The notes below the pieces were generated by a model that saw nothing but the letters and a program-made list of their open reading frames with translations, ran no database searches and had not been told where the DNA came from. A DNA stretch of 64,000 nucleotides from Hydrolagus affinis (Eukaryota): NCBI GenBank assembly GCA_012026655.1, contig JAAILG010000104.1, positions 1 through 64,000 on the forward strand. The letters are read 5' to 3'. Shown here piece by piece: positions 33,375-36,300 of this stretch. The position numbers and the translations under genes are program-made. How positions within the stretch are numbered: position 1 is the stretch's first letter; the number at the start of each line of letters is the position of its first letter.

Positions 33375-36300
33375 CTGTGCAATAACAATAGGAATAACCT
33401 GGATGAAGGAGCAGATTTATAGAAACAACAATAACAAACAACAAAATTACATTTATAGAGCGCCTTTCATGTCAGGAGGATGTCCCAAAGTGCTGGGAAA
33501 GTCCGAAGACCTCTTTAATGTTAATAACAGAAAGACACAAGAAATTTCTAAGGCTTCTTCACATACTGGAGATTGGTATCAAAAGTTATCTCTACAGGTA
33601 TTTCTTCCCTTTGGCCCAATCCCACACCACATGGTTTCCAGTAACTCTATGGCAGGATGTCCGCATTGGCTGAAATAATTTAAATTGCTTGGAGACCTGT
33701 AGCTCAGTGGTTAGAGCACCCATCTTACACGCATGAGACCTGTGTTCGAATCCAGGCAGATCAGGGCGAAACCTTGGGCAAGTTTCCATACTTCACACGC
33801 ATGCCTAATAATAATCCCTCCAAAAAAAAACCACAATAATAAAACTTGGTCATTTCAATCCACGACTGTTTTTGGGACACTGCTGTGCACAATTGACTGT
33901 TGCATTTCACCCACAAAATATAGTCAATTAATTTTAAAGTATATTCTGTGAAGCGCATTGAAACATCTAGAAGGCGTGAAAAGTGCTATATCAAATGCAA
34001 GGATTACTTTATTATATTTGGTTTGAATTTGGAGGCCGAGTTTCTTTGGTTGCTAAAAAAAAATACGACTTTCAAATAAAGACAAGTTTGCACAATCTTA
34101 AATTTGAAGACAAAAATGTGGTTTTCTACAGAAAACCTTACTGGTTTTCTACAATAAGGCTAGTTACCCTTCAAACTGAATAACTGTACCATTAAAATTG
34201 TCCCGTTAAAACTGCTAAACTAATGGATTGGTGGATCAGCCGAATCTCACAGTGTATATTGGGCAGGTCCATAAAAGAAAATAAATTGAAGAGGATTGTG
34301 CAGGACAAAGCGGAAATTTTGAAAGATTCACAATCAATAGGTAATAGTACCAATATTATTATTAAAAATAATACACTAATACTACTAGTGCAAAAGGGTG
34401 GCCAACAAGTTGGGATATCTACCCTATTTATTATTTAATAATAAGGATTCTTCTTATCTATATACAGTACATATATTATATATAATGATATATATTACTA
34501 TATATACTGTATATATATATATATATAATAATTTCTCAAAGATTTTTGGACATTGTAACTGTATCACACCTTTTGGCCACCCTGCATTCTTTTCTGACTT
34601 TATGTTAGTGAACAGTCCAAGTCAGTATAAGCAAGGCTTGCAAGAAAGTAGCTCTTGTAGCAGCCATAATTATCGTTACCTTAAGTACCATTTGCCTGCT
34701 TCAAGCCCTAGAAGATCTCCTGGGATTCCCATTCTAGGCCACAGCCATGCTGGGAGTTTCTTCTCAAGTAGCAGAGTGGTCGAGGCAATCTGAAATGGGA
34801 TGGTAATAGATTTTCCATACAGTATTAGATATATTTCCCTATATTTATCCCTGGAAATATAACCAAAATATCAGTTAATCGGTCAATTCATGGCTATTGC
34901 AGTGTGTACACATTGGCCTACTAAACACACAGTCACTACATGTTTACACTAAAATCCCCTTCAAGTGCTTTGAGTTCATTATTGGCAATGTGATAGGGTG
35001 CTATATCAGATGCAAAGATTATTACGTTAGTCGTAGTCATAATAATAATAATTATGACGAAATCAAAAAGAAGGGTTTGTGACATTTCAAGGTTTGGAAT
35101 AAATGTAACTCTGAAATCTAGGAAAAACTTTACAGAGCAGAAAAAATGAATGGCCTACCTGAGCCTTCCACAATAAATTGCGTTCACTGACCACTCGAAA
35201 ATGAGTGTCTCCCATTAAAGCAATAAAAAGGTTCAGGAGAAGAAGGAACCCAAAACACATGTAGACCATGTAAAGGACAATGATAATATCAGGCATCTTG
35301 ACGTGAGGTGTCCCCTGAAGTTCAGTTAGTCCCATCATCAGCTGAAACAATGTGAAAATAGTGATTGGAAAGTTCTTGAAGTAGGAATAGACATGTGGAT
35401 TCAACGCTTGGAAGTGTACATCGAAACCTGTGATGTGTGTTAAAAATAAATACATCAGCAATAAGGTAAGCACTCAACTCTTTTTAAGTCACAAGAATTC
35501 TTAGGTAGTGTGTCTGGACAAACTGGTTTTAAACATACCTGCGCCAAATCCTATAATGACAATTATCAGAACGTAACAAAACCTCATGAGGTCACCAAAG
35601 ATCATCTAATGGGAAAAAAAAGGGAAAAGAATTTGCTTTAAGTTCACTTTAGTACTAAATTGGTTTCAGGAATGACATTGGATAGGTGGAGGTGGGGTGA
35701 GGGGAGTGGGGGGATCTCACCAGTGATTCCCCATCAAATGGTGATGTTAAATGTGGACCTGATCCCAAACTAGTCCTTTATTTATTGACCGTAATTTAAT
35801 AATAATTCCATTTTTATACATAATAGATTGTTATATAATATCATATATATTCCGTTTGTGGTGCAAGAAAGACTAATCTTAGCATTGATTTGACTGTATA
35901 AAGAGGAGCATCATCACTCTTAAGTAAAGTGTCTGCATATTTTCGTTAGGCCAGCAGCTAAAATGCCCCCTTGCATCTGAAGTGATCATATTTTACAGGA
36001 ATACTGACTGTCGACTGTTTTAACACATGCTGAAATCTAAATAGCCAGAGATCGAAGCAATCGCAATGTTGCCATAGGTTATTTCTCCTGACATCTGTGA
36101 AGATAGATTTCGGTTTTACTTGCAGTCATTTCTAAACTATTTACCTTCCTGTTTAAACAGTGAAAAGGGGACACTGTGCGAAGATTGCTAATAACTATCT
36201 CTCGCTCAGTTTGATTTGGTAGTAGTGGTGAGGAGGGAGAAGAGAGAGAGAACTGAGCTGGGAATTTTAATATACCTTAAAGATAAATTATTCCAGAAAC

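Follow-up and report, generated by a model that had tools for sequence, protein, structure and literature searches.

A TRPV7 gene of Hydrolagus affinis with a Gly-Leu-Thr-Glu selectivity filter, and its possible bearing on calcium selectivity

The window analysed here is a stretch of 64,000 nucleotides from Hydrolagus affinis (GenBank assembly GCA_012026655.1, contig JAAILG010000104.1, positions 1 to 64,000 of the forward strand). Its minus strand carries a TRPV cation channel gene, which we identify below as TRPV7, with the neuroserpin gene SERPINI1 as its 3' neighbour, tail to tail, and a tandem TRPV8 gene upstream on the same contig. The features are listed in Table 1. Pfam identifies Ank_2 and Ion_trans domains in the Callorhinchus milii (C. 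milii) orthologue, and every exon of that protein was found in the window, so that the gene has the N-terminal ankyrin repeats and six-helix ion-transport domain of the TRPV subfamily. Exon 1 and the start codon are putative, being placed by homology to the shark orthologues.

An earlier note on this DNA had drawn attention to the pore, where it read the selectivity filter as Gly-Leu-Thr-Glu (GLTE) followed by Leu, in place of the Thr-Ile-Ile-Asp (TIID) of human TRPV6, together with a pore-helix Gln and a turret lacking acidic residues. As a description of the sequence this is correct: translation of window positions 35374-35291 on the minus strand gives 28 pore residues that include GLTE, and the strings quoted in the note agree with it. 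With PDB chains of TRPV5 and TRPV6, among them rabbit TRPV5 and human TRPV6, the pore exon gives a gapless alignment (E 8e-16 to 1e-14), and the TRPV1, TRPV3 and TRPV4 chains match it more weakly (E 1e-9 to 3e-8); the C. milii orthologue is likewise free of gaps against rat TRPV6 from the fifth transmembrane segment (S5) through the sixth (S6). Given these alignments, the register that sets GLTE opposite TIID is the right one. Pfam detects Ion_trans in the pore exon (E 9.5e-9). The filter codons are covered by contigs of all four runs (X5, X8, X9 and X11, from four studies), with zero differences there. The note had allowed for drift or sequence error should GLTE prove not to be conserved in orthologues; GLTE-L is present in 11 of 11 chondrichthyan TRPV7 rows, and with the motif fixed in this way neither explanation holds. 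The GLTE motif is thus confirmed as genuine, in the pore exon of an intact gene.

The gene is the TRPV7 of Morini et al. (2022), a member of the vertebrate TRPV5-8 clade, and is not a TRPV5/6 orthologue, because it groups with named TRPV7 proteins, adjoins SERPINI1 and lies in tandem with TRPV8. Table S1 of Morini et al. gives nine TRPV7 rows, among them XP_038672603.1, XP_032887094, XP_006002548 and XP_032818297 (PMC9664204). The first three of these fall in homologue clusters of the window gene and the last in the lamprey cluster. The same paper places SERPINI beside TRPV7 (section 3.4.4) and describes TRPV7 and TRPV8 as tandem genes in chondrichthyans (PMC9664204). The frog and platypus genes were first noted by Saito et al. 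(2011) under other numbers, TRPV7 being their "TRPV8" (PMC3072374). In our trees the window gene and that of C. milii nest within gnathostome TRPV7, with a support of 0.999 in FastTree (95 rows) and of 100 in the approximate likelihood-ratio test (SH-aLRT) of IQ-TREE (37 rows), the latter from a quick search with SH-aLRT only and no bootstrap. In both trees the gene lies outside the TRPV5/6 clade and also outside the TRPV1-4 clade. TRPV7 itself nests inside the TRPV5-8 clade (SH-aLRT 99), while the quick IQ-TREE search did not settle the lamprey TRPV7 between TRPV7 and TRPV8. A homologue search with the pore exon, in which 31 of 58 candidates passed, gave as best matches a C. milii protein labelled 'TRPV5-like' (91% identity), elasmobranchs (81-82%), bichirs and coelacanth (75%) and amphibians (66-73%). 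The whole protein is 88% identical to its C. milii counterpart, which by itself points to another holocephalan as the probable source. The figures for catshark XP_038672603.1 and skate XP_032887094 are 78% and 77%, that for coelacanth is 66%, and rodent TRPV6 has 44%. The earlier note was right about the TRPV5/6 scaffold, rat TRPV6 being matched at E 5e-190 and TRPV4 at only 1e-68. It did not recognise TRPV7; human TRPV6 was the only TRPV5/6 protein with which it compared the gene.

Table 1. Features of the TRPV7 locus. Positions are those of the window unless another contig name is given.
Feature	Position	Strand	Remarks
TRPV7 gene, 15 coding exons, 701 aa	60230-33212	minus	all introns GT-AG; single open frame to stop
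TRPV7 exons 1-5	60230-60046, 54850-54756, 52357-52235, 51516-51376, 46454-46356	minus	tblastn against C. milii and shark orthologues
TRPV7 exons 6-10	44834-44662, 43501-43355, 43100-42897, 41659-41573, 39344-39268	minus	tblastn against the same orthologues
TRPV7 exons 11-15	38324-38159, 35605-35539, 35427-35159, 34789-34680, 33374-33212	minus	tblastn against the same orthologues
Pore exon (269 bases: S5 end, turret, pore helix, filter, S6, start of TRP helix)	35427-35159	minus	AG/GT ends
Turret Q528-P542 (15 residues)	35410-35366	minus	zero Asp/Glu; mostly beyond the interval 35290..35375 of the earlier note
Pore-helix Q550 (E535 of TRPV5/6)	35344-35342	minus	Gln in 37/37 TRPV7 and 3/8 non-tetrapod TRPV5/6; acidic in 13/13 TRPV8
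Selectivity filter G554-L555-T556-E557	35332-35321	minus	aligned to human TRPV6 T539-I540-I541-D542
L558, residue after the filter	35320-35318	minus	translation
F598 (lower-pore W583 position of TRPV5/6)	35200-35198	minus	Phe 26 and Tyr 11 of 37 TRPV7
Neuroserpin (SERPINI1)	20823-30148, ends approximate, last exon unmapped	plus	seven exon-bearing serpin-like frames
Tandem TRPV8	G000:C104 ~71900-81200 (L007, L008)	minus, same strand as TRPV7	~11.7 kb upstream of TRPV7

The gene is thus a new species member of an already named subtype, and the filter difference is apparently undescribed. The literature searches, judged by title and start of abstract and with subscription journals thinly covered, gave, among the matches listed, no functional or pore study of TRPV7 or TRPV8; these were phylogeny and expression papers together with apparently incidental mentions. 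In the main text of Morini et al. the word 'pore' does not occur and the filter is not discussed; the motif may be visible in its PDF supplements or in the alignment figures of other papers.

Conservation was counted over one row per genus or species, giving 37 TRPV7 (the window gene included), 13 TRPV8 and 21 TRPV5/6 (8 non-tetrapod, 13 tetrapod), the last being a sample drawn from the best 120 of 705 matches. Isoforms, most partial entries, two fused records, three short representatives and platypus TRPV7 (P0083, which ends before the pore) were left out. The rows are phylogenetically related, and the counts are to be read as those of non-independent events; a Fisher test on the residue before the acid was set aside for this reason. 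With the C. milii orthologue, and not the window product, as the first of 16 aligned sequences, AlphaFold2 gave a mean predicted local distance difference test (pLDDT) score of 52.6, with values below 50 across the pore, too low to be informative.

Most of the features on which the earlier note had based an altered permeation are widely shared. The note had taken the initial Gly and the following Leu as marks of the thermoTRPVs (TRPV1-4 and TRPV9). The Gly is found in 37/37 TRPV7, 13/13 TRPV8 and 8/8 non-tetrapod TRPV5/6 and in 0/13 tetrapod TRPV5/6, where Thr (10) or Asn (3) takes its place; the residue after the acid site is hydrophobic in all TRPV7, TRPV8 and non-tetrapod TRPV5/6, and Gly or Ser in tetrapod TRPV5/6. 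Neither is a mark of the thermoTRPVs, all 21 rows of non-tetrapod TRPV5/6 and TRPV8 having the Gly and a hydrophobic residue after the acid site. The same genome has a TRPV8 filter reading GLID-L and one TRPV5/6-like copy reading GLMD-V, and the primer used to make zebrafish Trpv6 D539A translates as G-Q-I-A-L-P-V, so that the wild type must be G-Q-I-D-L (PMC6764821). That channel gives Ca2+ influx like human TRPV6, which is abolished in D539A (PMC6764821). From these sequences we conclude that non-tetrapods normally have the G...L filter, and that TIID-G belongs to tetrapods. A second Gly distinguishes the thermoTRPV-type exons found in this genome (GLGD, GMGD, GMGD); it occurs in only 1 of the 37 TRPV7 rows.

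The pore-helix Gln, which had seemed an oddity, is invariant in TRPV7 and common also to the TRPV5/6 of lamprey, skate and coelacanth; in mouse TRPV6, E534A leaves Mg2+ gating and rectification indistinguishable from those of the normal channel (PMC2217333), although one simulation assigns E535 a peripheral Ca2+ site (bioRxiv 2022.09.07.506889). The turret of the window gene has no acid, that of C. milii has 1 and those of 9/9 elasmobranchs have 2; non-tetrapod TRPV5/6 have 1-3 and rodent TRPV6 has 5. By these sequences the acid-free turret is a species-level trait. The initial Gly, the Leu that follows the acid, the Gln of the pore helix and the lack of turret acids were all rejected as diagnostic of non-selectivity, being shared or species-level. 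Two further observations concern the turret. At N540 one relative's contig has Ser, showing that the site drifts, and an N-glycosylation sequon is present in the turret of 21/22 amphibian TRPV7 rows and absent from all fish rows. Just before the turret, at the end of S5, Asp524 and His526 (window 35422-35414) form a polar mark that runs through TRPV7 (His in 35/37 rows at position 526, mostly Asp or Asn at 524), the corresponding residues in tetrapod TRPV5/6 being Tyr and Ile.

What does set TRPV7 apart is the acid site itself and its surroundings. At the position of human TRPV6 D542 the 37 TRPV7 rows have Glu (11), Asp (10), Asn (13), Ser (2) or Lys (1), with an entropy of 1.93 bits compared with 0 at Q550-G554 and L558. 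Asp is found there in the TRPV7 of lamprey (GLKD), bichir and newt (both GLTD), in 7/13 TRPV8 and in 18/21 TRPV5/6, and Asn, Ser or Lys in coelacanth, caecilian and many frog TRPV7. Nine of the 37 TRPV7 filters lack any acid in the four positions, and in seven frog rows (GLDN, GVDN, GLDS, GLEN) the only acid lies one position inward. The residue before the acid site is hydrophobic in 1/37 TRPV7, as against 10/13 TRPV8 and 21/21 TRPV5/6, and the W583 position holds Phe or Tyr in 37/37 TRPV7 as against Trp in 13/13 TRPV8 and 19/21 TRPV5/6. The equivalents of the gate Ile, the S6 Asn and K484 are invariant in 37/37 TRPV7, and those of R584 and R305 are kept in the window gene. Because so many relatives have Asp at the site (the TRPV7 of lamprey, bichir and newt, and many TRPV8 and TRPV5/6), Glu557 is likely to be a chondrichthyan substitution of an older Asp and not a relic, a polarity argued from living outgroup sequences.

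Loss of the acid is seen in paralogues as well. It is missing from some tetrapod TRPV8 (platypus P0077/P0078; amphibian P0306, P0080, P0296 and P0282), with the filters GLIA, GLTT, GLTN and GLIN, and Asn stands at the D542 site in TRPV5/6 paralogues of the frogs Leptobrachium (P0087) and Ascaphus (P0091), both NVIN, and of the swamp eel Monopterus (P0086), GIVN; we predict that these three paralogues are not Ca2+-selective.

Set beside its relatives, the window gene is in most respects an ordinary chondrichthyan TRPV7: the same 10-residue pore occurs in all chondrichthyan rows, the SERPINI neighbour and tandem TRPV8 are alike, Gln559 and Phe598 are common to C. milii, and differences, such as the turret without an acid, are at the species level only. 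With TRPV8 it has in common the LMMG-L frame, a pore loop of equal length, gill expression and an identity of ~47-49%; TRPV8 differs in its acidic pore-helix residue, in the usually hydrophobic residue before the acid site and in Trp583. Lamprey TRPV8 (GLIE) also has Glu at the site, apparently independently of chondrichthyan TRPV7. With TRPV5/6 it shares the whole scaffold, including the short turret and the equivalents of the gate Ile, the S6 Asn, K484, R584, D580 and G579, and non-tetrapod TRPV5/6 resemble it further in the Gly start and often in the pore-helix Gln. TRPV5/6 are nevertheless only ~44% identical, mostly have the outer Asp preceded by a hydrophobic residue, and mostly keep Trp583; where the Ca2+-selective channels have an Asp ring and Trp583, the window gene has Glu557 and Phe598. 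Their gene neighbours are also different, being EPHB6 and KEL (bioRxiv 564997), neither of which flanks the window gene. The thermoTRPVs are like TRPV7 in the Gly start, the terminal acid and the following Leu, and TRPV2 has an upper-gate Glu, but they have the second Gly where the window gene has Thr556, are ~31% identical and form a separate clade (SH-aLRT 100).

We consider it, on balance, just probable from these sequence patterns that TRPV7 is an epithelial (gill) cation channel that opens in the manner of TRPV5/6 and has laxer Ca2+ selectivity and weaker Mg2+ block. An altered permeation, as claimed in the earlier note, is thus plausible on account of the variation at the D542 site across TRPV7, and not on the grounds cited there, which are not diagnostic. 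In the homotetramer expected of a TRPV channel, four subunits would set Glu557 at the outer ring, in the place of TRPV6 Asp542, where Ca2+ would still be attracted and would pass. The tight carboxylate ring, which couples the three-site knock-on in Ca2+-selective TRPVs, would be loosened by the greater length of Glu, by a polar Thr556 standing for the hydrophobic Ile, Leu or Val before the acid, and by the sparse charge further out, and Na+ would pass despite Ca2+. Gly-Leu at the start of the filter and Gln in the pore helix are old features common to fish TRPV5/6 and in themselves no argument for relaxed selectivity. Basal opening is predicted to depend on phosphatidylinositol 4,5-bisphosphate (PIP2), because K320, R323, K499 and R599 are kept. 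These are basic residues at the PIP2 site, in which the R584 and R305 positions of TRPV5/6 have a role. Calmodulin plugs the TRPV5/6 pore at W583, and Phe in its place would alter this calmodulin-dependent shut-off. The original series of D542 mutants is reportedly that of Nilius in 2001.

Published work on the relatives offers some guidance. In simulations and structures, selectivity is tied to a narrow ring of carboxylates that supplies a three-site knock-on, and side-chain packing at the preceding position is noted (PMC10038842); the non-selective TRPV2 has Glu at its upper gate (E609, Table 1 of PMC10038842). Mg2+ block and most Ca2+ permeation are gone in TRPV6 D541A (PMC2217333), and Mg2+ inhibition is gone in TRPV5 D542N (PMC2266600). 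At the lower pore, rabbit TRPV5 W583F and W583Y are milder than non-aromatic replacements, and W583 mutants raise basal Ca2+ (PMC5379628). Expression of catshark trpv7 peaks in the gills, as does that of trpv8 and trpv5/6 (PMC11979771), and elephant-fish TRPV5/6 has a similar peak (bioRxiv 564997). Since the subtype tolerates Asn, Ser and Lys at the D542 site, TRPV7 is unlikely to depend on that ring; Ca2+ permeation is still expected, since the chondrichthyan form retains the acid.

Several observations weigh against relaxed selectivity. No TRPV7 current was found measured anywhere in the searched literature. Glu is invariant in all 11 chondrichthyan rows, which indicates that the acid is under constraint there, and the variation at the D542 site comes from amphibians and coelacanth. 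Nor is that variation confined to TRPV7, since the filter acid is also missing in 5/13 TRPV8 and 3/21 TRPV5/6. Human TRPV6 with D542E, N, Q or A has no detectable current (PMC13216613), and such silence is compatible with a silent subunit as well as with a less selective channel. Gill expression beside trpv5/6 would fit Ca2+ uptake equally well. A bolder form of the proposal, which we advance only tentatively as somewhat unlikely, is that vertebrate TRPVs include a third functional class, represented by TRPV7. This epithelial cation channel on the TRPV5/6 scaffold would be open constitutively, would inactivate weakly and would not select for Ca2+, and its outer ring would have been retuned lineage by lineage.

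The constancy of Glu in chondrichthyans would also be expected if their TRPV7 were still a highly Ca2+-selective uptake channel of the gill, with Glu for Asp perhaps tuned to the Ca2+ and Mg2+ of seawater. Such a channel would account for the gill peak of trpv7 (PMC11979771); fish TRPV5/6 also have the initial Gly, a Leu behind the acid and Gln in the pore helix, zebrafish Trpv6 conducts Ca2+ with its G-Q-I-D-L filter (PMC6764821), and E534A, D547S and D549A leave TRPV6 gating and rectification unaltered (PMC2217333). We nevertheless regard it as rather unlikely, given that 16/37 TRPV7 have Asn, Ser or Lys there, and given the non-hydrophobic preceding residue in 36/37, the intolerance of human TRPV6 to D542E (PMC13216613), and the presence in the genome of TRPV5/6 copies and a GLID-type TRPV8. 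The silence of human D542E and D542N (PMC13216613) can be turned to another use, namely that TRPV7 joins TRPV8 or TRPV5/6 in heterotetramers, as a subunit that conducts poorly or modulates and whose filter would be freer to vary. Two variable outer filter positions between invariant flanks are what this would produce, TRPV8 lies in tandem, and all three genes peak in the gills (PMC11979771). This is distinctly improbable in view of the conduction by rabbit TRPV5 D542N (PMC2266600) and mouse TRPV6 D541A (PMC2217333) and of the constancy of the residues equivalent to the lower-gate Ile, the S6 Asn and K484. An origin of the motif in misalignment, an error in the sequence or drift in a pseudogene can be practically dismissed. 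In its favour are only the fragmentation of the assembly into 245,464 contigs and the fact that no spliced RNA from the species was seen; the 701-residue frame is open, the splice sites are canonical, the register is gapless, the codons are the same in 4/4 runs and the motif occurs in 10 other chondrichthyans, by which the idea is already refuted.

The earlier note had suggested that GLTE retains a filter predating Ca2+ selectivity, which we judge improbable. It is true that the Gly-Leu-x-acid-hydrophobic frame is older than TIID-G, itself restricted to tetrapod rows, and that a TRPV of the sponge Sycon (P0228) reads FQLATGLTDI, with a pore-helix Gln and Thr before the acid, so that G-L-T and Gln may be old; three Sycon proteins stand beside TRPV5-8 in FastTree (support 1.0). 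However, the Sycon sequence has Asp instead of Glu, as do lamprey, bichir and newt TRPV7, 18/21 TRPV5/6 and 7/13 TRPV8. TRPV7 also lies inside the TRPV5-8 clade and not below it, the Sycon placement is left undecided by IQ-TREE (63, long branches), and any polarity is argued from living outgroups alone. The three TRPVs of the calcareous sponge Sycon ciliatum are P0090/P0228, P0111 and P0216, and the one with the TRPV7-like pore scores 485 bits against C. milii TRPV7. Morini et al. find their clade D in deuterostomes only, with cnidarian TRPVs in other clades, and name no sponge in the section concerned (PMC9664204); among the literature matches listed, none treats the placement of the Sycon proteins.

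The neighbourhood adds some detail. One exon of SERPINI1 matches neuroserpin at E 3.7e-28. The tandem TRPV8 is compact (~9 kb compared with 27 kb for TRPV7), has the pore VELMMGLIDLP, and keeps Trp583; its pore exon shares 97% identity with a C. milii member of the TRPV8 clade. Separate TRPV5/6-like copies lie on other contigs of the genome. One divergent holocephalan copy (G000:C44255:3886-4197, L036; C. milii P0230) has a pore-helix Met and the filter GLMD or GLLD, and its S6 is without the usual Asn, gate Ile and GDTHW motif, so its gating may differ. A further locus (G000:C15387, L034) is an ankyrin-rich TRP gene with the pore FALFGMVDP, presumably TRPN/NOMPC-like. The introns and flanks of TRPV7 contain an abundant interspersed repeat, probably a short interspersed nuclear element (SINE), at 33700-33950, 37600-38000, 38660-39090 and elsewhere. 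In two single-cell RNA runs of a related organism (27-30% of reads) only repeats were covered, with almost no depth over exons, the probable SINE absorbing nearly all of the reads. Upstream of the serpin, two runs of N (13869-13968 and 15152-15422) lie within a GC-rich segment (~14000-16000, GC 0.52) that is possibly a promoter region.

Explanations of TRPV5/6 selectivity usually start from the TIID of mammals and a single aspartate. In fish TRPV5/6 the filter is G-x-x-D, and TRPV7 is a sister subtype that has been kept throughout vertebrate history while varying at the selectivity aspartate. Database labels such as 'TRPV5-like' and 'TRPV6-like' are therefore no safe guide to calcium-channel function. 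Should TRPV7 prove less selective, it would provide a natural series of filters on one scaffold for the knock-on model, and would be a candidate cation pathway of shark and amphibian gill epithelia. If the reading as a third functional class is true, the subtype would amount to an allelic series supplied by nature, in which the basis of Ca2+ selectivity in TRP pores could be read.

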